From an uncultured Bacillota bacterium (GTDB lineage: Bacteria; Bacillota_I; Bacilli_A; RFN20; CAG-449): a stretch of 64,000 nucleotides of DNA. The position numbers and the translations under genes were made by a program. Shown one piece after another: positions 18,752-29,072 of the stretch. Positions within the stretch are counted from its first letter, which is position 1. Every line of letters starts with the position of its first letter. The stretch spans positions 28,639 to 92,638 of the forward strand of contig CABUOQ010000001.1 of assembly GCA_902493275.1 (NCBI GenBank). The letters run 5' to 3'. The notes under the pieces were generated by a model that was given only the letters and a program-made list of their open reading frames with translations, had not been told where the DNA came from and made no database searches.

Positions 18752-20023
18752 CTACTCGTTATTAGCAAGAATAAACTTTGAAAATAATTCGTTTTTCAAA
18801 TTATTTAATACTTCATTTTTATTTGGTTCAAGAGCAGTTCTAACATCTTCAATTTTCATATTATATAATTTAGCTAATTCTTCAACTTTATCGTTATATG
18901 CTTTTGAATCAACAACAATTTTTTCTTTTTGGCAGATTTCTTGGATGACTAACATTCCTTTAAGGTTCTTTAATGCCTCAACCTTCTTATCTTCAAATAA
19001 CTTTTCAATAGTGATGTTATTTATTTTTAGATAATCTTCAAATTTTAAACCATTCTTTTCAACTTGGTCTTTAATAGATTTAATTTGAGCATTTGCTTCT
19101 TCGGCTACGATAACATCAGAAATATCTAAAGTTGAACTTTCAATAATCTTATCAACAATAGCGTTCAAATGATTATTATCAGCTGCTCTTTGTTTTTGAG
19201 ATAAAAGATCTTTTTTAACTTTTTCACGATATGAATCAACACTTTCAACATTATCAAGTTTTAAATCTTTGACAAATTCATCATTTAATTCAGGTAATAC
19301 AGTCTTTTTAACTTCGTGACATAAGACCTCGAACTTAGCATCTTTGCCAGCGAGTGATTCAACATAATTATCAGGGAATTTAACTTCGATAGTACGTGAT
19401 TCATCACTTTTAATTCCTACCAATTTGTCTTCAAATCCTGGGATGAAAGAGTTAGAACCAAGTTTTAAATCATATGATTTTGCCTCTCCACCTTCAAATG
19501 GAACATCATCGATAAATCCCTTGAAATCAATAGTTACTGTATCGCCAATTTCTGCTGCATCATCTTTTAAAACTAATGTAGCTTCTTTTTCTAATTCTTT
19601 GGTTAAAGCTCCATTAACCTCTTCTTCAGTTACATTTACTTCTTCTTTTTCAACTTTAATACCCTTATATTCACCTAAAGTAACAACAGGTCTTAAAACA
19701 ACAGTAATCTCTACTTCAAATTCATTTTCATCAGCTTTATTAACCATTAATTGTGGATCGGTAATGCCTTGAATTTTTTCTTCATTAACAATTTTGACAT
19801 ATTCCTTGTTAACCATATCATATAAAGCATCATGAATTAATTGGTTTTTATTAATTCTTTGTTGAGCTATATTAGCAGGAACATGACCTTTTCTAAATCC
19901 AGGCACATTTAATTTCGCTGCGAGTTTGTTAAATTCCTTTTTTTGTGCTGAAGCCCATTCTTCACCATTAGCCGATAAAGTTATGACGACTTCTGATACT
20001 TTTTTTTCAATCTTCTTTTCCAT
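18752..20023 (-). CDS. tig: Trigger factor
   Basis: N-terminal ribosome-binding motif GFRKGHVP and a central FKBP-type PPIase; 423 aa. Confidence 0.93.
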   Translation of the reverse strand: MEKKIEKKVSEVVITLSANGEEWASAQKKEFNKLAAKLNVPGFRKGHVPANIAQQRINKNQLIHDALYDMVNKEYVKIVNEEKIQGITDPQLMVNKADENEFEVEITVVLRPVVTLGEYKGIKVEKEEVNVTEEEVNGALTKELEKEATLVLKDDAAEIGDTVTIDFKGFIDDVPFEGGEAKSYDLKLGSNSFIPGFEDKLVGIKSDESRTIEVKFPDNYVESLAGKDAKFEVLCHEVKKTVLPELNDEFVKDLKLDNVESVDSYREKVKKDLLSQKQRAADNNHLNAIVDKIIESSTLDISDVIVAEEANAQIKSIKDQVEKNGLKFEDYLKINNITIEKLFEDKKVEALKNLKGMLVIQEICQKEKIVVDSKAYNDKVEELAKLYNMKIEDVRTALEPNKNEVLNNLKNELFSKFILANNE

Positions 20024-20130
20024 AATAAAAATATTCTCCTTACTAAAAGCAAGTACTATTTTATATTATAAATATAAATAGAGCAAGAAAATATTTTTAT
20101 CATTTGCTTTTTTATATTAAATATTTGACC

Positions 20131-20215
20131 TTAAAGATTATCTTTAATGATTTTAATCATAAGAATGATATCTTCTTCATCTAACACTCTTTTATTAAAC
20201 ATTCTTTATAATTAA
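20131..20215 (-). pseudogene. Orphan 3' fragment (..MFNKRVLDEEDIILMIKIIKDNL*) homologous to the C-terminus of the 293-aa protein at 27219-28100
   Basis: About 70% nt identity to 27219-27300. Encoded tail ..LMIKIIKDNL* compared with ..NTMIKIIKEHL*. Confidence 0.6.
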
Positions 20216-20261
20216 AAAAATCCATGAAAGCAAAATCATTAATTTTTTTATCACCAATCAA

Positions 20262-20314
20262 AAAAAGGATAGAATCACCAATCATCTTTTAAAAGATATG
20301 ATTCTTCCTTTTAT
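20262..20314 (-). terminator. Bidirectional rho-independent terminator downstream of lipoprotein paralog A
   Basis: aaaaggatagaatca..tgattcttcctttt stem with T-runs on both strands. Confidence 0.6.
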
Positions 20315-20409
20315 AAAATTTCTCAATTTGAATTTTGAAAATTCTTATTTAGACTATAAATAAATGTTAACACTATTGCTATTTTGTCTAGAGCAAGTTT
20401 ATTAGTCAA

Positions 20410-21132
20410 TTATAAACCAGCTTTAGAAAAAGTAATGCTTTTATTTTCATCTACCATAAAGCCAATATATGGATTATGATAACTTTCTATAACATCATCA
20501 TTATAAACTGGAACTATCTCTTCCCCAGATTTACGATATATTCTAAGTGATTCTTTTTCAACAGGCGCTATAGTGAATGTATATTGTATACTACCTTTAC
20601 TTTTAATCAAATCATCTGCAGTAACGATATCATTGAATGGCAATTTTTTATGATATTGTATCGCAAATTCAATATCAAAAAAATACTCAGTTTTATTTTC
20701 AAAAGAATATATCTCTTTAACATCATAAACATCTTTATATCCATCGATGTAAATATTTCTATATAATTTTAATTCTAACAATTGATCCTTATCTGAATTC
20801 CACCATTCAAGAAATTCATGATTTAAATATCTTTGACCAAAATATACCTCAACACTTTGATTATGACTACTTTCTGTTCTAGCTTTTATTCCTGTATAAA
20901 ATTCATAAAAACTATCTATTAAAGGTGAAGTAGAACCACTATCCTTATCAAAATTTAATCCGGCTTCAATATATTCATCTTGCGAATTCATTTCTGATGA
21001 TAAGCTACTCACTACTTCTGTGTTTGATGATATGCTGCTTTTTTTATTAGCATTATCGCACGAGGTTAATAGTGAAGAAAATAAGAATAAACAACTTACA
21101 ATAATTAATGCATTAGATTTCTTTGTCATCAT
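20410..21132 (-). CDS. Surface lipoprotein, paralog A (240 aa)
   Basis: Lipobox LLTSC. The N-terminal roughly 50 aa and C-terminal roughly 110 aa are near-identical to the 22523-23230 product, with a divergent central segment. Confidence 0.75.
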   Translation of the reverse strand: MMTKKSNALIIVSCLFLFSSLLTSCDNANKKSSISSNTEVVSSLSSEMNSQDEYIEAGLNFDKDSGSTSPLIDSFYEFYTGIKARTESSHNQSVEVYFGQRYLNHEFLEWWNSDKDQLLELKLYRNIYIDGYKDVYDVKEIYSFENKTEYFFDIEFAIQYHKKLPFNDIVTADDLIKSKGSIQYTFTIAPVEKESLRIYRKSGEEIVPVYNDDVIESYHNPYIGFMVDENKSITFSKAGL

Positions 21133-21192
21133 AATATTCCTCCCTAATATTTTATATTATTTTTTTAAAAGTCATAGTTATTCATCTTACCT

Positions 21193-22190
21193 ACCTTAGA
21201 ATTGAATTTTTTTATATCCTTCTTAATTACCCAAGTCTTTTGAATGTTCTCAAAATATCAAGAAAATTACTTGAGTCGACAAATCATTAAGGAAATAATC
21301 TCAACCATTCACTTAATGACAATGGTTATTTCTTTATGAAATTGAGCCATTTACTTGTTAAGTTGTTTATCTTTCTATGCTCTCTATGGTGTAATTGTCA
21401 ATCAAATTATTTAGAAATCATCAAATCTAATTTAAATATTTAAATAACTTAAGAGCAAACAAAAAAATATTAATATTATCTCTAAGTTATAAGTACCCTA
21501 AACATATTTTATACTTTTCACTATTGTTTGTAAATACCGATATTTAGAGATTTCTTTTGTAGTTTGAACATTTGATAAGGTAAGAAAATAATAATATTAA
21601 ACAATAAAACTTTTTACTATGTTATTGCTTCTTTTAGAAATGTTAATAAAGTTTCTAGCAAGTGTTTTTTCAATATTGGTGAACATTTAAAATTATTAGC
21701 TTGCTGTATTGATGATTATATAACAAATAAAGGAGAATCAGCAACTAACAAGTCTCATCGATTGATAAAAATGCGATAGAAGAAGAATCTAAATTTAATT
21801 GTTTTTATGCTGTTGCTCCAAATCGTGAAATAACTATCTATGAAATAGTAAAAATCAATTCTTCTAGATGGAAATAGAACAATCTTTTATAATATTAAAA
21901 ACTGATTTTGATGCAGACCTGCTTATAAAATATCCGTGGTCATTTTGCAATTTACTTTATTAATATATCATATTCTTGAAAGAAAATTATTTTTATTAAA
22001 TGAAAACATTTATTTTACTACAAATCAAATTCTTCAACTTTAAGCAACAAACTTGATAGAAAATATTATAATTTTTCTTCTCTTAACAAACTCTTCTCTT
22101 AATTATTAAATCGTAGCAATATTCTCATTTACATTTCTTATATTACAACATATTGCTACTTTTTTGTTCTTTATCTGAAAAAGCCAAGAT
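21193..22190 (+). mobile_element. Decayed IS remnant copy 1 (IS4/IS5-type DDE transposase C-terminus, frameshifted)
   Basis: Around 21836-21960 the sequence reads ..YEIVKINSSRW(K)IEQSFIILKTDFDADLLIKYPWSF.. with the R-x3-E-x6-K transposase signature broken by a 1-nt deletion in an A-run. There is no intact ORF. About 1 kb is repeated at 26130-27210. Confidence 0.5.
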
Positions 22191-22256
22191 ATTATAAATA
22201 TAAATAGAGCAAGAAAATATTTTTATCATTTGCTTTTTTATATTAAATATTTGACC

Positions 22257-22336
22257 TTAAAGATTATCTTTAATGATTTTAATCATAAGAATGATATCTT
22301 CTTCATCTAACACTCTTTTATTAAACATTCTTTATA
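22257..22336 (-). pseudogene. Orphan 3' fragment of a 293-aa-gene homolog (second copy)
   Basis: Identical in coding sequence to 20131-20215. Confidence 0.6.
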
Positions 22337-22384
22337 ATTAAAAAAATCCATGAAAGCAAAATCATTAATTTTTTTATCACCAAT

Positions 22385-22440
22385 CAAAAAAAGGATAGAA
22401 TCACCAATTATTCATTAAAGGATATGATTCTTCCTTTTAT
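22385..22440 (-). terminator. Bidirectional terminator downstream of lipoprotein paralog B
   Basis: Same hairpin as 20262-20314. Confidence 0.55.
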
Positions 22441-22522
22441 AAATTTTCTCAATTTGAATTTTGAAAATTTTTATTTAAACTATAAATAAATGTTAACACT
22501 ATTTTTTATTTCATATTATTTT

Positions 22523-23230
22523 TTAATAGGTAATTTTAGAAAAAGTAATGTATTTATTTTCATCAACATTAAAATTTATACTAGAACCATAACTTCGGAT
22601 TTCATTGTCAGAGTATGCTAGAACAATTCCATTACTAGACTTGCAGTAAATTCTAAGCGGCTCATTTTCAACCGGTGAAATAGTAAATGTATATTTCACA
22701 CTACCTCTACTTTTAATTAAATCATCTGCAGTAACGATATCATTGAATGGTAATTTTTTATGATATTGTATCGCAAATTCAATATCAAAAAAATACTCAG
22801 TTTTATTTTCAAAAGAATATATCTCTTTAACATCATAAACATCTTTATATCCGTCGATATATATGTTTCTGTACAATTTAAATTCTAATTGTTGATCTCT
22901 ATCAGACCCCCAATAATCTAATAACTCGGCACTCATAAGATAATTTCCAAAATATACTTCGATATTAGGATTTAAACTGCTCTCTTTTTTCACTTTTATT
23001 CCCGTATCCCAATAATTGAAAACGGTATCTACAGGACTCTCGGTGGTACCCCTATCGAATCCCACTTCAATATATTCATCTTGCGAACTAATCTCTGATG
23101 ATAAGCTACTCACTACTTCTGTGTTTGATGATATGCTGCTTTTTTCATTAGCATAATCACACGAGGTTAATAGTGAAGAAAATAAGAATAAACAACTTAC
23201 AATAATTAATGCATTAGATTTCTTTGTCAT
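22523..23230 (-). CDS. Surface lipoprotein, paralog B (235 aa)
   Basis: Lipobox LLTSC; shares N- and C-terminal blocks with paralog A. Starts 28 nt after the stop of the 906-aa gene, so is likely co-transcribed with it. Confidence 0.75.
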   Translation of the reverse strand: MTKKSNALIIVSCLFLFSSLLTSCDYANEKSSISSNTEVVSSLSSEISSQDEYIEVGFDRGTTESPVDTVFNYWDTGIKVKKESSLNPNIEVYFGNYLMSAELLDYWGSDRDQQLEFKLYRNIYIDGYKDVYDVKEIYSFENKTEYFFDIEFAIQYHKKLPFNDIVTADDLIKSRGSVKYTFTISPVENEPLRIYCKSSNGIVLAYSDNEIRSYGSSINFNVDENKYITFSKITY

Positions 23231-23257
23231 AATAATATTTCTCCCTATTATATTATA

Positions 23258-25978
23258 TCAACTTTTTGTAAAAGTTATATTTATATCGTCACCTGAATCA
23301 TAATCGGCAAAAGTTTCAGAAGGATCATATTGAGAAAGGACAATAAAATAAGTAATGTCTTTATTAAAGTTTCCATAAATCTCTGCATTAGAATCATCAG
23401 AATCATCATTTTCATTAATATCATATTCAATTAAATCTGAACTACTTGGATTAATAACATAGAGATAATTGTCAAACTCACTATTTAATTTAATTTTATA
23501 GTAACCACTTTCAGTTGGAGTCCATGTTAAAACCATAGAATTGTACTGACATAAATATGCTTTTAAAGAATAATTTGTAACTGAATTAATATGATAAATA
23601 TTTTCATATTTTGATAATGAATTATCTTCATTATTTTTAAACCCTTTTATAGGGGTTATAGATAGTTTCGTCTTTCCGGAAGCAGTTGAACTATATAATT
23701 TTATTTTCAAGACATAAGTTTTATTGGATTCTAAATTTTTATTAATAAATGAATTTAATTTATATCCTGAATCATCATCGTTAGCAATTAAAGTTTTTCC
23801 ATCCTCTTCATACAACCACATTTTGGTATCTATTCCACCAAACGTTTGTATTAATTTATCACCAGAATTATCAAAACTAATGTGGAAGATCCATTCTGTT
23901 CCCTGTGAAATAGCTAAGCTTTTTTCAAAATATCTTATATTATCTAATTCTAAATTGGTTTCTGCCATAGAAGGCTTAGAAAATTCATAGTAACTAGAAT
24001 AATATGGACCACTCTCTATACCAAGAGTAGCATATGATTGAATCATAACATAATACTTTGTACCTGTTGCCATAAGTATAGAGTCCCATTCACTTTGAGT
24101 TAAAGTATATGTGTTAGTAGTTATGTTATTCTTCTTTAATATCAAATTTTTGTTTAAATCATAAAAGTTTAATGTGAATTTATTATTGCAAAAACTATAT
24201 TTTACTCCATCTACAATAATACTTGTCCCTCCAACTTTCCAATTAAATGTTGGTAGTACAAAATAATTATCAGAAACATTAATTGAAATATTGTATGAGC
24301 TCAGTTTGAATCCTTCTAGCAATTTTCCTAAGTCAGAACGTGAAAAACTTAACTCACTATTATATAAAACATTAATAAAATCGTAAAAAAATTCTGGGTT
24401 GTTATCAACCATTAAGTTCCACAAATCCGTATCACTAATTGATAATTTATCACAATCTATAGAATTGTTTGAATCCCAAAGTCTATAAAGAAAACTTTCA
24501 ATAATAACTTCATCTGATTCGCCATTTATTTGATTATGAAATCCAAATGTATTAGTCATTTCCTCTAAACTTTGATCTATTCCATTATAAGAACTATATT
24601 TTACGTCTCCGACAACAGATATTTTTCTTAAGTCTTGTGGAAAAGTGCTTTGAGCAGTAATAGCAAAAAATGTAGGCCATGCCTCCTTCCAAGCAAGACC
24701 AATCGCATGAGTTTTTGCTTTCGCTAATTCTTGAGCGTCGATAATATATTCTTCACTATTCTGTTTTGCACTAATAATATTACTGAATAAATATTGGTAT
24801 AAACCATTATAAACTATAGCATGCTCACCAGAATAATTTTGTTGAAAAAAACATTTCTGTAAATGGTGGCCATATTCATGACCTATAACATCCCACGAAC
24901 CATGAACGGATGGAGAGTCATTTTTTCTATAAGACTCATTGGCCAAATAAATATTTTGCTCATTATTTAAATAATAACATCCATCATTTTCTGTAGGATA
25001 TACAATACCACATGTTTCTATGTAAACTCCATTGTTTAATGTTCTTGCATACTCAGAATATCTTTCCATTGCAGAAAAAATTTGCATTGCATATCCCAAA
25101 TCATCATGTTGCGCTCCAGTAAATGTTAGAGTGCCAAAGTCATAATTTGTATTAATTGAAAAATTTGTAAGTTTATTAGCACTTTCATACACATTTCCAT
25201 TTTTATTTATTACTTTTACCATTAAATTTTCAGCATAAATATGTATATAGCAATCACTACTTGCTAACAAACTACTATAATTAATATTAAAATATCCAGA
25301 AGAATTAGTATAAGTAAAATATGCAAATTGATTATGACCTAAATCTAATTTAACTTTTACCCCAATTAAAGGGTGAGAATTTAACTCATCATCCTCCCAT
25401 TTTAAATATCCATAAACTCTTCCAGAGAAACTAATTTTTTGAGGCTTATTAGTATCCATATCTTCAGACTCTGGCGTTACTCCTATATACGATGCATTAT
25501 CTACATCGTTATCCATATACTTTTGACCTGGAATATTTCCTACTAATTCCCAAGCTGAATAAAGCGACAATGAAGATATGGCATATTTATTGTCTTCACT
25601 TTTTGAAGAATAAACACTTCTTTTAATTGTCTCTTCTTCCAAAGAAAATGATATTTCTGTTTTTCCATCTTCATTAGGTAAAGTAAATTTTACATAACAT
25701 CCACTTATATCTGATGATATGATATCTAAACTTATATTACCTTCAAAATGTATTAAAGGAACAGCTTCAAAATCATAATTAATATTGCCAAAAAATGTGT
25801 TGTTATTTGAAACAGCATTCTCACCAAAATCAAATGTAATTGTATGATTGTTTCCCGTTCCTAAACTATAATTAACATTTTTAATTTCAGTTAAATTTAC
25901 TAAATTTTCATTGCTTACTGACGGATGAAAAGAAATACCCAAAAAAACCAACATTAATATTAAGAACTTTTTTAACAT
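23258..25978 (-). CDS. Large secreted protein (906 aa) with an HExxH zincin-like motif and a C-terminal pre-peptidase (PPC)-like domain; putative metallopeptidase
   Basis: SPI-type signal peptide MLKKFLILMLVFLGISFHPSVS. Motif ..SWDVIGHEYGHHLQ... A C-terminal roughly 110 aa region ..LYEEDGKTLIANDDDSGYKLNSF..YVLKIKLYS.. resembles PPC domains. Asn/Ser/Tyr-rich beta composition. Confidence 0.55.
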   Translation of the reverse strand: MLKKFLILMLVFLGISFHPSVSNENLVNLTEIKNVNYSLGTGNNHTITFDFGENAVSNNNTFFGNINYDFEAVPLIHFEGNISLDIISSDISGCYVKFTLPNEDGKTEISFSLEEETIKRSVYSSKSEDNKYAISSLSLYSAWELVGNIPGQKYMDNDVDNASYIGVTPESEDMDTNKPQKISFSGRVYGYLKWEDDELNSHPLIGVKVKLDLGHNQFAYFTYTNSSGYFNINYSSLLASSDCYIHIYAENLMVKVINKNGNVYESANKLTNFSINTNYDFGTLTFTGAQHDDLGYAMQIFSAMERYSEYARTLNNGVYIETCGIVYPTENDGCYYLNNEQNIYLANESYRKNDSPSVHGSWDVIGHEYGHHLQKCFFQQNYSGEHAIVYNGLYQYLFSNIISAKQNSEEYIIDAQELAKAKTHAIGLAWKEAWPTFFAITAQSTFPQDLRKISVVGDVKYSSYNGIDQSLEEMTNTFGFHNQINGESDEVIIESFLYRLWDSNNSIDCDKLSISDTDLWNLMVDNNPEFFYDFINVLYNSELSFSRSDLGKLLEGFKLSSYNISINVSDNYFVLPTFNWKVGGTSIIVDGVKYSFCNNKFTLNFYDLNKNLILKKNNITTNTYTLTQSEWDSILMATGTKYYVMIQSYATLGIESGPYYSSYYEFSKPSMAETNLELDNIRYFEKSLAISQGTEWIFHISFDNSGDKLIQTFGGIDTKMWLYEEDGKTLIANDDDSGYKLNSFINKNLESNKTYVLKIKLYSSTASGKTKLSITPIKGFKNNEDNSLSKYENIYHINSVTNYSLKAYLCQYNSMVLTWTPTESGYYKIKLNSEFDNYLYVINPSSSDLIEYDINENDDSDDSNAEIYGNFNKDITYFIVLSQYDPSETFADYDSGDDINITFTKS

Positions 25979-26129
25979 ATTTTTACATCTTATACTAATA
26001 AATAATTTGAGATTGAACTATTTATTAGTAATCCTTTCTTTGAGAACAATACTTTTAATTAATTCAATAATCAAAAATAAATTTATGTACATATATGTCA
26101 AGTACAAAAAAATTATTCTTTATGGACAA

Positions 26130-27210
26130 AGCTAATTAACCCACCTTAGAATTGAATATTTTATGCATTCTTTTTAATTACCCAAGTCTCTTGAATGTTC
26201 TCAAAATATCAAGAAAATAACTTAGGTTGACAAATCATTAAGAAAATAATCTCAACCTTTCACTTAATGACAATGGTTATTTCTCTATGAAATTGAACCA
26301 TTTATTTGTTAAGTTGTTTATCTTTTCTATACTCTCTTTGTCGTACAAAATATGCTAAATATAATGCTTTGCTAGCGATTGAATATAAGACTTATATTTT
26401 TTAGATTCATTTATAAGTTTAAACTCTTTTTACTAAAGTTCTTGAATTAAAATTAAGTCGTATTCTTCACATTTTATTTATGCGACAAAAATCTTATATT
26501 TAGATATATAATACCTAAAAACAAAATTTTTAGTTGTGATATTTTTGCTTTTTCATAAACAAAAGATATTATTAATCAAATCACTTAGAAATTATCAAGT
26601 TTAATTTCAATGTTTAAATAATAGCCTAAGAGCAAAACAAAAAAATATCAATATTATCCCTAAGTTATAAGTACCCTAAACATATTTTATACTTTTCACT
26701 ATTGTTTGTAAATACCGATATTTAGAGATTTCTTTTGTAGTTTGAACATTTGATAAGGTAAGAAAATAATAATATTAAACAATAAAACTTTTTACTATGT
26801 TATTGCTTCTTTTAGAAATGTTAATAAAGTTTCTAGCAAGTGTTTTTTCAATATTGGTGAACATTTAAAATTATTAGCTTGCTGTATTGATGATTATATA
26901 ACAAATAAAGGAGAATTAGCAAATTAAAAACTGATTTTGATGCTAGATCTGCTTATAAAATATCCGTGGTCATTTTGCAATTTGCTTTATTAATATATCG
27001 TATTCTTGAAAGAAAATTATTTTTATTAAATGAAAATATCCATTTTACTACAAATCAAATCCTTCAACTTTAAGCAAAAAGCGTAATAGAAAATATTATA
27101 ATTTTTCTTCTCTTAATTATTAAATCGTAGCAATATTCTCATTTGCATTTATTATATTGCAACATGTTGCCACTTTTTTATTCTTTATCTGCAAAAGCCA
27201 AGATTATAAA
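26130..27210 (+). mobile_element. Decayed IS remnant copy 2
   Basis: Collinear with 21193-22190 at about 90-95% identity. It has an extra roughly 190-bp segment at 26345-26590 and lacks the roughly 150-bp segment at 21720-21880. Its transposase-tail reading frame is broken differently. Confidence 0.5.
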
Positions 27211-27218
27211 ACTTGTCA

Positions 27219-28100
27219 TTATAGATGTTCTTTGATGATTTTAATCATCGTATTTACATCATCTTCGTCTAACGCTGTATTAATTAATAATTGTTTAAGC
27301 GATTGTTTCTCATCAAATTCCAGTTGCGTAAGATAAAAAACAATCTCTCCGATTATCTCTGAGGAATAAAAATCAAATAAGGAATGTGGAAAAAATTTAA
27401 TTTCAACCGTATTTAAAATATCAATTGCTAAGGAAATAATAGATGGAGAAACACTTGCTCGTTGAATGTAATCAACACAATCTAAATATGCTTTTCTATC
27501 TAATGGATATGCTAGCTTAATCGGATTAATTACAAGTGTCTCTTTATCAGATATTTTCACCTTAAAATTTGAATCTATCTTTTGATCGATTAAAATATAT
27601 TCTAACAAAACTTTATAATCATATTTTTCATTTGAAATAAGATATTCGGAAACAACATCTAAATAGTTGCGAATATTAATTGATGAAAGGTATTTTAAAG
27701 CTTGACTAACACAATCAACATTCTGACTATATAAATCTTTTATAAGTGATTCACGAGTGTAGTCATCTTTTTTTATTGAAAAATAATTCTTTTTGATTTC
27801 TTCTTCTAACTCGTTCATAAAATCATCAACTGTTAATGAAATAAATGGAGCCTCTTGATATTCTTTCAATACTTCTAAAGCTTGGTTTGCATCATCTTTA
27901 GCAAGATAAAAACTCACATGTTTGCCAATCAATAATACCGGTTGTACTTTTAATAAATGTTCAGCATTATTATCGATAAAATCATGTAATTTATCTTCAT
28001 CAAGCATCATTATAATCACATCTAAAAGCTCAAATAGTGAGGAATCATCTTTTTTTAAGAGTAAATCTTTATATTTTTTTAATAGAACTTCATTATCCAT
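27219..28100 (-). CDS. Acidic cytoplasmic hypothetical protein (293 aa). Full-length member of the family whose 3' fragments appear at 20131 and 22257.
   Basis: Complete ORF with no signal peptide; its 3' end abuts the IS remnant end. Confidence 0.55.
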   Translation of the reverse strand: MDNEVLLKKYKDLLLKKDDSSLFELLDVIIMMLDEDKLHDFIDNNAEHLLKVQPVLLIGKHVSFYLAKDDANQALEVLKEYQEAPFISLTVDDFMNELEEEIKKNYFSIKKDDYTRESLIKDLYSQNVDCVSQALKYLSSINIRNYLDVVSEYLISNEKYDYKVLLEYILIDQKIDSNFKVKISDKETLVINPIKLAYPLDRKAYLDCVDYIQRASVSPSIISLAIDILNTVEIKFFPHSLFDFYSSEIIGEIVFYLTQLEFDEKQSLKQLLINTALDEDDVNTMIKIIKEHL

Positions 28101-28103
28101 TGA

Positions 28104-29072
28104 TTAATATATTTCCTTTACTTTTGCAATAAAAAAACTCAAAGTTTTCTCATGATAATATTCTCGTGCTGTCTTTTTGTCATCAGTAACATAAATTTGA
28201 TTTATATAAGGGCAATCTTTATAATATGAAGAAATAACTTTCATTGATAAAACATCACCAAATTCTGAATATTCTCTTTCAAAGCCATCATTATATATTA
28301 TACGGGCATCGCTTAAAGTACCATTAATGTATCTTTGCAATGTTGGGACTACGCCGCCTCTATAACCAAGTGTTGGATTACCTTCAACTGATAGACCATA
28401 TTTATTAGTAAATTGACTATAATATTCATCACTAGTAAAATATTTTGACATATCAAAACCATACAATACTTTTTCATTATTCTCAATGTAGTCATTAAAA
28501 AATAATTTCTTAAAGGAAGTACAATCACTACACGTTTCTAAATGGAAATAAACATCTATATCACCATTTGATGAAATTAATTTATTTAATTCATCCTCAT
28601 CATTTAACACATAAAAATTAGAAACGTTAATCTTAGAATTAATTAAATTATTAAACGCTATCGAAGAATTAAATATCTCACTATTTTTTTCATCATCAAA
28701 GCGCTCCTTAATATTACCATTTTCATAAAGAATAAGTGTTGGAGTTACTTTATATGGTGAAAAAGAATTATCAGGAGATAATCGCTCAGCATCAACGTTT
28801 ATGCCATATATTAAGCAGTGATTCTGTTTAATATATGAATTCAAAATATTTTCAAATGAATTACAGGAAAAACAACTGGGAGAATAAATAAATAACAAAA
28901 AAGTGTCTTCATTCATTATCTTCCCTTGCAATATATCTTTTGAAATATCAGCAAAGCTCTCATTAAATGCTGATCCTTGTATTGTAATCATATCTTTATT
29001 AGGCATGATACTTCCTTGTTTACATCCAGTTAAGCACATCAAAACCAAAAATGGAATAATCTTTTTTTTCAT
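28104..29072 (-). CDS. Lipoprotein with two thioredoxin-like CxxC domains (thiol-disulfide oxidoreductase-like)
   Basis: Lipobox LTGC; ..LFIYSPSCFSCNSF.. and ..DVYFHLETCSDCTSF.. CxxC motifs in a beta-strand-CxxC-helix context; 322 aa. Confidence 0.55.
   Translation of the reverse strand: MKKKIIPFLVLMCLTGCKQGSIMPNKDMITIQGSAFNESFADISKDILQGKIMNEDTFLLFIYSPSCFSCNSFENILNSYIKQNHCLIYGINVDAERLSPDNSFSPYKVTPTLILYENGNIKERFDDEKNSEIFNSSIAFNNLINSKINVSNFYVLNDEDELNKLISSNGDIDVYFHLETCSDCTSFKKLFFNDYIENNEKVLYGFDMSKYFTSDEYYSQFTNKYGLSVEGNPTLGYRGGVVPTLQRYINGTLSDARIIYNDGFEREYSEFGDVLSMKVISSYYKDCPYINQIYVTDDKKTAREYYHEKTLSFFIAKVKEIY

Follow-up and report, generated by a model that had tools for sequence, protein, structure and literature searches.

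An apparent tandem duplication with mosaic-like lipoprotein genes and a putative zinc metallopeptidase gene at a strain-variable locus of an uncultured gut Bacilli species

The Vsp, Vlp and Vsa families of Mycoplasma have a conserved 5' region and signal peptide, diverged mature regions, and recombination between their members. In the potempin/KLIKK-peptidase operons of Tannerella forsythia, a surface-anchored lipoprotein inhibits the linked peptidase and protects the producer (PMC9890683). The nuSa-alpha lpl cluster of the Firmicute Staphylococcus aureus is made of tandem lipoprotein paralogs, and both the locus and its copy number vary among strains (PMC4470592). The locus described here resembles each of these in part. 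It is located in a 64-kb stretch of DNA (the window; GCA_902493275.1, contig CABUOQ010000001.1, positions 28,639 to 92,638) from an uncultured Bacillota bacterium of the genus-level lineage CAG-449, between a 293-amino-acid (aa) gene and tig, and it is a strain-variable accessory locus. Two repeat units, A and B, carry the lipoprotein genes lipoA and lipoB, respectively, and unit B additionally carries a gene for a 906-aa secreted HExxH protein (the 906 gene). All coordinates refer to the window, and strain contigs are denoted by L-numbers. The window has ~29% guanine and cytosine and uses the standard genetic code. The species was recovered from metagenome assemblies only, several of which are labelled human gut, e.g., the metagenome-assembled genome (MAG) GCA_964314975.1. 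Its DNA also occurs in SRR23947518, ERZ918214, ERZ18534053, and JGI 3300029858. In the 14-31 kb part of the window every gene is on the minus strand, as are all the features listed below.

The repeat was delimited by self-blastn and by alignment of its junctions. Positions 20063-21181 matched 22189-23284 with 83% identity over 1125 nucleotides (nt), and identity was 97% across the 300-nt stretch of 20063-20362 versus 22189-22488. A second pair of copies was formed by an AT-rich spacer/leader free of open reading frames (ORFs), here called X: X1 (21189-22198) and X2 (26139-27210) were 88-95% identical, with insertions and deletions (indels). Three junctions were then aligned, namely the stop codon of the 293-aa gene against X2 (junction a), orphan tail 2 plus 53 nt against X1 (junction b), and orphan tail 1 plus 53 nt against the leader of tig (junction c). 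Junction b consisted of the left side of c and the right side of a, and the 8-nt microhomology TTTATAAT was common to all three. The repeat unit was therefore defined as X, the 906 gene where present, the lipoprotein gene, the terminator, the tail, and the 53 nt. Its parts followed each other head to tail in equal order in both units, with 2854 nt absent from unit A.

Unit B (proximal, 5012 nt, 22199-27210) comprised X2, the accessory 906 gene (23258-25978), lipoB (type B, 235 aa, 22523-23230, starting 27 nt past the 906 stop codon), a terminator-like hairpin (22386-22438), orphan tail 2 (22251-22334), and the 53 nt ending at 22199. Unit A (distal, 2136 nt, 20063-22198) comprised X1, a relic of the 906 3' end, lipoA (type A, 240 aa, 20410-21132), a terminator-like hairpin (20260-20312), orphan tail 1 (20116-20208), and the 53 nt ending at 20063, after which the leader of tig (20023→18752) began. 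The novel junction, where the post-tail sequence of unit B meets the start of X at TTTATAAT, was placed at 22189-22200. An independent Joint Genome Institute (JGI) contig, L011, also carried junction b and continued into tig. Judged from these alignments, the two units are a plain tandem segmental duplication at an 8-nt microhomology. Ordinary genome dynamics explain both the duplication and the orphan tails, and no special system is needed. A previous sequence-only reading of this stretch had described two units of the same layout; the repeat itself was real, while its boundaries had been misplaced, the X1/X2 pair had been missed, and the tail, taken as part of the beginning, is the end of the unit. 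The bidirectional terminator proposed in the same reading was found after each lipoprotein gene, as a hairpin flanked by an A-tract and, on the opposite side, a U-tract. By RNA folding, the hairpins had energies of about -15 to -17 kcal/mol (-15.1 after lipoB and -17.1 after lipoA), and the one after lipoB was not called by the consensus scanner.

Another duplication was seen on contig L014 (ERZ18534053, 292-7641), where a Na/Ca exchanger gene, MntP, and a 119-aa cysS fragment are repeated upstream of the full set of Na/Ca exchanger, MntP, and cysS. It also leaves an orphan gene fragment, which suggests that such duplications are common in the genome.

The 2854 nt by which the units differ (26138-23285) correspond to the 906 gene and the 160 nt upstream of it, and single-unit strains of the L001 type lack them as well. 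Unit A consists at this point of the left boundary of unit B joined to the last ~35 nt of the 906 gene in diverged form, with AGGTG at both boundaries. The relic was mapped upstream of lipoA by boundary alignment (21155-21190), and it is also found, at the place corresponding to ~21155-21190, in the single-unit L001. Since a diverged 906 3' end survives upstream of lipoA, the gene was deleted from unit A and not inserted in unit B.

Each orphan tail was a 24-codon ORF remnant, RMFNKRVLDEEDIILMIKIIKDNL, followed by a stop codon (20131-20205 and 22257-22331) and ending in …VLDEEDIILMIKIIKDNL. The two tails were identical to each other. Against the 3' end of the 293-aa gene (27203-27297, i.e., its last ~85 nt and 10 nt more), they showed 75% nt identity over 85-95 nt (self-blastn, E 6e-10 and 2e-9), and 11 of 22 residues were identical to the end of the 293-aa protein by manual count. 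The proposal that the tails are remnants of a homolog of this gene was thus borne out. Four independent assemblies of the species, the single-unit L001, L003, L008, and L009, had exactly one orphan tail before tig, and the tail stood at the distal end of the unit, beyond the terminator of the lipoprotein gene. As a single tail is already present in one-unit strains, it is one relic that was copied by the duplication, and the notion of a unit with an orphan tail as a cassette architecture was abandoned. The 75%-identical relic shows that a diverged second, or foreign, copy of the 293-aa gene once existed.

The 293-aa gene itself (27219-28100, ORF call) was intact and species-restricted; upstream of it, a PedC-like thioredoxin lipoprotein of 322 aa is encoded (29072→28104). 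In the 293-aa protein, no signal peptide and no Pfam or NCBIfam match were detected, and a word-indexed search of 5.8 billion proteins yielded no homolog beyond its own 90% cluster. The only long identical run between the true and the orphan tails was a 14-nt near-palindrome, ATGATTAAAATCAT, which encodes MIKII and is located at ~27225-27238, 22263-22276, and 20137-20150. It could be a coincidence or a former recombination core. Synteny around tig did not reveal an ancestral empty site: among species-representative genomes, the nearest tig homolog, from an uncultured Erysipelotrichaceae MAG, was 53% identical, and the region upstream of it was not conserved.

No ORF of at least 40 aa was found in X, and all six frames contained stops. 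Tblastn with proteins of the neighbourhood and of the other contexts, profile searches with hidden Markov models (HMMs) of the lipoprotein and 906 families, and blastn against phages gave no match in X. With stops in all frames and no protein, HMM or phage similarity, X was not recognisable as a pseudogene, and the possibility that it is a decayed gene was rejected. The region 19500-28500 had no Rfam match at E values up to 1. Between X1 and X2, 200-nt tracts of 100% identity stood beside indels. A 149-nt segment (21745-21893) was present in X1 and missing from X2, and a 227-nt segment (26341-26567) was present in X2 and missing from X1. Part of the latter recurred in the leader of a third paralog located elsewhere in the genome, and the segment is therefore ancestral.

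A promoter scan detected a promoter-like site, TTTACA - 17 nt - TAAAAT, in X2 (26684-26712), and the same element was found in X1 upstream of lipoA (21506-21534). The third paralog carried 205 nt of X directly upstream, with 76% identity and including the promoter; there, the -35 element was identical and the -10 element was TACAAT. The promoter and a ~130-nt leader were conserved at all three loci. A structured RNA in the leader was considered and found unsupported (consensus fold -5 kcal/mol, z-score -1.3). No hairpin was seen in the 27 nt that separate the 906 gene from lipoB. It seems that each unit is driven from the same X promoter, which in unit B would serve the 906 gene and lipoB, and in unit A lipoA. 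The promoter-distal part of X (26735-27210 and 21560-22198, ~475-640 nt) was kept in every strain right after the stop codon of the 293-aa gene.

The lipoprotein genes were compared in blocks numbered by lipoA residues. Both proteins carry the lipobox LLTSC, as the sequence-only reading had noticed, and their signal peptides were 90-100% identical. The N-terminus (residues 1-50) had 90% aa identity, with a synonymous divergence (dS) of 0.07 and a ratio of nonsynonymous to synonymous divergence (dN/dS) of 0.52. It was followed by a first variable block, V1 (51-121), with 48% identity, dS 1.26, and dN/dS 0.31. In the core (122-180, 59 aa), identity was 98%, dS 0.32, and dN/dS 0.02, and in the second variable block, V2 (181-240, 60 aa), the corresponding values were 59%, 1.28, and 0.25. 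The near-identical C-terminal stretch of ~110 aa reported earlier was accordingly narrowed to this 59-aa core, the last 60 aa being only 59% identical. The centre was, as had been predicted, more divergent than the ends.

Synonymous divergence differed up to ~18-fold between the blocks (Fisher p = 8e-8), and the non-coding flanks were 97-100% identical in places. The paralogs are thus recombination mosaics, genuine but modest, and not duplicate-and-diverge copies. The pattern points to old allelic segments under purifying selection inside sequence that gene conversion homogenises again and again. The recombination footprint suggested earlier was corroborated by this ~18-fold range in dS, as well as by a hybrid gene, copy-number variants, and a V1 swap in the third paralog (see below). 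Positive selection in V1 and V2 was considered and rejected, as dN/dS was 0.25-0.31. LipoA and lipoB had no Pfam or NCBIfam match and contained no tandem repeats. An AlphaFold2 model of lipoA based on a 26-sequence family alignment (predicted local distance difference test score, pLDDT, 82) was mostly beta-strand over residues ~50-240, with few short helices; an alignment of 6 close sequences had given pLDDT 31.

A word-indexed search returned 4 clusters of the lipoprotein family with 15 distinct sequences. They fell into three discrete types, and sequences of one type shared at least 96% identity. Type A adjoins tig, type B adjoins the 906 gene, and type C is the 226-aa third paralog. Comparison of strains for copy number, as had been proposed, revealed one-unit and two-unit strains as well as hybrid genes. 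Contigs L097, L098, and L099 had one unit with the order 906 gene, a lipoprotein gene with a B N-terminus and an A body, tail, and tig. L097, the one compared in detail with the window, was 100% identical to unit B up to lipoprotein codons ~32-45, and from there 100% identical to unit A. It is exactly the product that unequal crossing-over in a parent with two units would leave by deletion. In L001-type strains, the 906 gene was absent, the first half of X was X2-like, the second half of X together with the leader and the N-terminus was A-like, and the gene body was B-like. By its sequence, this arrangement is the opposite hybrid (A N-terminus, B body) to L097.

The third paralog occurs in the same genomes and samples, upstream of rpmG-secE-nusG and with a 193-aa gene on its other side (L015:9766-10681, GCA_964314975.1 contig 31; also L014 and L016-L019). 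A rare variant allele, C2 (L090, ERR14039889), was identical to allele C of L015 save for V1, which differed with dS 1.17. The V1 of C2 was nearest to type A (dS 0.76). Given that C and C2 differ in V1 only and that the V1 of C2 is type-A-like, V1 behaves as an exchangeable block. MAG GCA_964314975.1 contained both type-A and type-C genes, and its contig broke exactly at X.

Homologs of the 906-aa protein formed 49 clusters, all unnamed and with no Pfam match, at 26-56% identity and with end-to-end alignment. In 24 family members, Pfam detected no Rhs, LXG, or other toxin-associated domain, and neither the protein nor the family profile had a sequence relative in the PDB. In 24 homologs, the residues W362, D363, I365, H367, E368, Y369, G370, H371, H386, and E432 were invariant, the central motif being WD.IGHEYGH(H). 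The NCBIfam YpfJ HExGHH zinc-peptidase model matched weakly (E 0.003, far below the family cutoff). The 906-aa protein is thus a putative zinc metallopeptidase, consistent with a zincin, and the evidence for this is thin. The species holds a single 906 allele without a variable C-terminal toxin domain. In L002 (12121-14841) and L007 (SRR13872435, SRR32129100), the gene differed from that of the window at 4 positions, and one of these, T>A at nt 1107, replaces Y369 by a stop codon (HE*GH), so that the putative protease is naturally knocked out in these two independent samples.

The surroundings of 906 homologs were compared in seven contexts: the window, five genomic contigs (L091, L092, L094, L095, and L096), and one IMG/VR contig (L100). 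A gene of the lipoprotein family adjoined the 906 homolog in the same orientation in all seven, with gaps of 10-27 nt. Outside the window, the distance was 10-20 nt, and the neighbour, of 220-270 aa, was either a lipoprotein or anchored in the membrane. Single lipoprotein-family genes were found upstream of the homolog in L095, L096, and L100, and downstream of it in L094; L091 had two tandem copies upstream, and L092 two tandem copies downstream with 48% mutual identity. The neighbours were related to lipoA and lipoB by blastp (1e-27 to 1e-11) and by the family HMM (2.5e-63 to 1.8e-6), and for the L100 neighbour the relation was given by hhalign with a probability of 87%. An exhaustive profile search of 1.84 billion representatives placed the lipoprotein family in 25 clusters at 50% identity. 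The constant linkage suggests a module of a protease and its partner, with no Pfam or PDB match.

In two of these contexts (L094:3232-4904 and L096:3764-4982), an extracytoplasmic function (ECF) sigma-70 gene and a gene for a membrane-anchored protein precede the 906 homolog. The anchored protein of L096 belongs to the lipoprotein family and has an N-terminal cytoplasmic extension. The overlap of its gene with the sigma gene is 8 nt, and the architecture resembles that of anti-sigma factors. This is a hint that, outside the cytoplasm, the lipoprotein-family domain can serve in sensing or as a partner. In L100 (2425-8380; IMGVR_UViG_3300043822_000104), two identical insertion sequence (IS) copies, each with a 302-aa rve integrase and a 133-aa ORF, flank the lipoprotein gene and an 847-aa 906 homolog in a composite-transposon-like arrangement. 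Genes for a BspA-type leucine-rich repeat (LRR) protein and a large terminase subunit are located just downstream.

Taken together, the locus is probably best explained as a strain-variable one in which a module was duplicated in tandem and then reshaped by deletion of the 906 gene, gene conversion, and unequal crossing-over, its lipoproteins being partners of the protease-like protein. Its core consists of two genes, apparently transcribed from the conserved promoter in X: one for a secreted, zincin-like HExGHH protein of ~900 aa, the other for a lipoprotein of ~230 aa that is mostly beta-strand. Illegitimate recombination at the 8-nt microhomology duplicated the whole unit, including the pre-existing relic of the 293-aa gene, and a deletion at the AGGTG microhomology removed the 906 gene from one unit, leaving the ~35-nt relic. 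Patchy gene conversion then homogenised the signal peptide, the 59-aa core, the sequence downstream, and parts of X. V1 and V2 persisted as allelic types that are old and under functional constraint. In the population, unequal crossing-over gives rise to the one-unit and two-unit strains and to the hybrid genes. For the lipoproteins, the role of a membrane-anchored binding partner of the secreted protease-like protein is proposed; they may inhibit it and so protect the producer, or tether it to the surface, and the V1 and V2 types may be alternative binding or exposed surfaces.

Several observations weigh against this explanation. L011 is the only independent contig across the duplication junction, and the origin of the first orphan tail and the 5' ~475 nt of X are left unexplained. 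The protease assignment consists of the motif and the one weak NCBIfam match (E 0.003), with no Pfam or PDB-sequence match, and the partnership of the lipoprotein with the 906-aa protein is drawn only from their adjacency in the 7/7 contexts. In addition, the lipoprotein genes remain intact in strains whose 906 gene is missing or disrupted, and at the third locus, which has no 906 gene. It follows that the lipoproteins have a role independent of the protease, either as their only role or as a further one.

The same persistence, with purifying selection on the lipoproteins of strains that have lost the 906 gene or carry a nonsense codon in it, would be expected if the locus resembled polymorphic toxin/immunity systems, the 906-aa protein being an antagonistic effector, the lipoproteins its cognate immunities, and the extra copies orphan immunities. 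The strict adjacency of the effector-like and lipoprotein genes in the 7/7 contexts, the frequent tandem duplication of the lipoprotein gene, and the IS copies that flank the module in a phage-like contig, where it behaves as mobile cargo, also agree with this. The orphan DNA, however, does not come from toxin C-terminal domains; 24 of its codons derive from the 293-aa gene, which is unrelated, and 12 from the 906 gene. The only 906 allele of the species lacks a variable C-terminal toxin domain, and Pfam showed no Rhs, CDI, LXG, or WXG features, with no search of the PADLOC and PHROGs libraries. Recombinant strains pair the 906 gene with either a B-body or an A-body lipoprotein, so that no fixed cognate exists. 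Such a system is considered improbable here. The likeness to an orphan cassette of a polymorphic-toxin locus drawn in the sequence-only reading was likewise discarded, as the tail covers no more than the final 22-24 codons of the 293-aa gene, whose product has no toxin domain, and it stands at the distal end of the unit. In a broader proposal, the ~900-aa HExGHH protein and the lipoprotein form a previously undescribed effector/protector pair of gut Bacilli. The protease would be secreted and in places mobile, with IS copies around it on a phage-like contig and an ECF sigma factor in control of it in other species, and the lipoproteins would give type-specific protection or tethering at the surface. 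V1 and V2 would be specificity blocks that paralogs exchange and that have been preserved as ancient allelic classes, and the protease-less strains would keep orphan protectors. This proposal is doubtful, although a small chance is given to it. Programmed antigenic or phase variation of the Mycoplasma Vsp/Vlp/Vsa or Borrelia vls type, with the repeats and orphan pieces as a silent-cassette archive, is very unlikely. Its expected signs are present in so far as the promoter, leader, and signal peptide are conserved in the three paralogs and the mature regions are variable, hybrid genes occur in the population, and V1 is swapped between alleles of the third locus. The copies are, however, only 2-3 in number, full-length, and expressed-looking, with no promoterless cassette archive. 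No site-specific recombinase was found in the flanks with gene calls, inverted repeats were at chance level only (70-81% matches), the genes had no tandem repeats, and the promoter spacer alignment showed no evident homopolymer tract. Diversity was also low: all assemblies of the species gave the 15 distinct sequences of three types, at least 96% identical within the type, and dN/dS was 0.25-0.31. Of the earlier likeness to variable surface antigens, the conserved 5' region with variable blocks remains, and the rest, lacking switching machinery, high diversity, and a raised dN/dS, does not.

An integrated mobile element, or two in tandem, targeting the 3' end of the 293-aa gene would account for the first tail, which the preferred explanation by tandem duplication does not. 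The tails would then be duplications of an attachment site (att), with the element supplying a replacement gene end. Direct repeats of a gene 3' end around an accessory insert are a classic footprint of integrative elements, the tails share the 14-nt identical near-palindromic core ATGATTAAAATCAT, and the nearest relatives have no such insert upstream of tig. Nevertheless, neither the insert nor the annotated flanks, whose genes are housekeeping ones, contained an integrase or recombinase, and X is non-coding. The second junction is 53 nt past the tail core and at a different microhomology, and the insert was present in every assembly of the species seen, with no empty site, so an element of this kind has a low probability. 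The two units could finally be an assembly artefact in which two strain variants of a single-copy locus were concatenated. Many assemblies do break in X or in the repeats (L004, L005, L006, L012, and L013), and single-unit strains exist. Against this, L011 independently holds the novel junction and runs into tig, L097 is the exact recombinant expected of a two-unit parent, 100% identical on both sides, and MAG GCA_964314975.1 has type-A and type-C genes and breaks exactly at X. An artefact is therefore extremely unlikely.

The locus merits recording for its orphan gene fragments, which are explained with no special system. The novelty lies in two families that are linked throughout the contexts compared and have no annotation in Pfam, the PDB, or the literature. 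They come from human-gut Bacilli of which little is known, and strains differ in whether the protease-like gene is present, missing, or interrupted by a nonsense codon.

Among known processes and systems, ordinary tandem segmental duplication with concerted evolution fits the head-to-tail units, the microhomology junction, the identical tracts beside old divergence, the hybrids, and the copy-number variants. There is no structural difference from it, and the escape of V1 and V2 from homogenisation and the source of the first tail are what it does not account for. With the Mycoplasma Vsp, Vlp, and Vsa families, the locus shares a 5' untranslated region (UTR) and a signal peptide that are conserved across the family; in contrast to them, it has no intragenic tandem repeats, invertible promoter, site-specific recombinase, homopolymer switch, or large gene family. 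The S. aureus lpl cluster is similar in its tandem paralogs and strain-variable copy number, and differs in that here there is no Pfam match, only 1-2 tandem copies and one dispersed copy occur, a protease-like gene is linked, and the family is tiny. The closest known arrangement would be the potempin/KLIKK one, in which, as here, a small lipoprotein gene adjoins and is apparently co-transcribed with a secreted peptidase gene, and several paralogous pairs occur (PMC9890683). The gene order here varies, however: the lipoprotein gene precedes the 906 homolog in L091, L095, L096, and L100 and follows it in the window, L092, and L094. The host, one of the Bacilli, is monoderm, and the lipoproteins also occur with no linked peptidase gene. 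Neither the potempin fold (a 5-stranded oligonucleotide/oligosaccharide-binding (OB) fold or an 8-stranded up-and-down beta-barrel of 98-132 aa) nor sequence homology to potempins was found in the lipoproteins. With fold and size different, the relation would be one of analogy, not membership. If the lipoprotein is indeed an inhibitor or tether of a secreted zinc protease, the locus would be a Gram-positive counterpart of the potempin/KLIKK arrangement and would offer a way into the study of proteolysis directed at the host or at competitors by an uncultured lineage.

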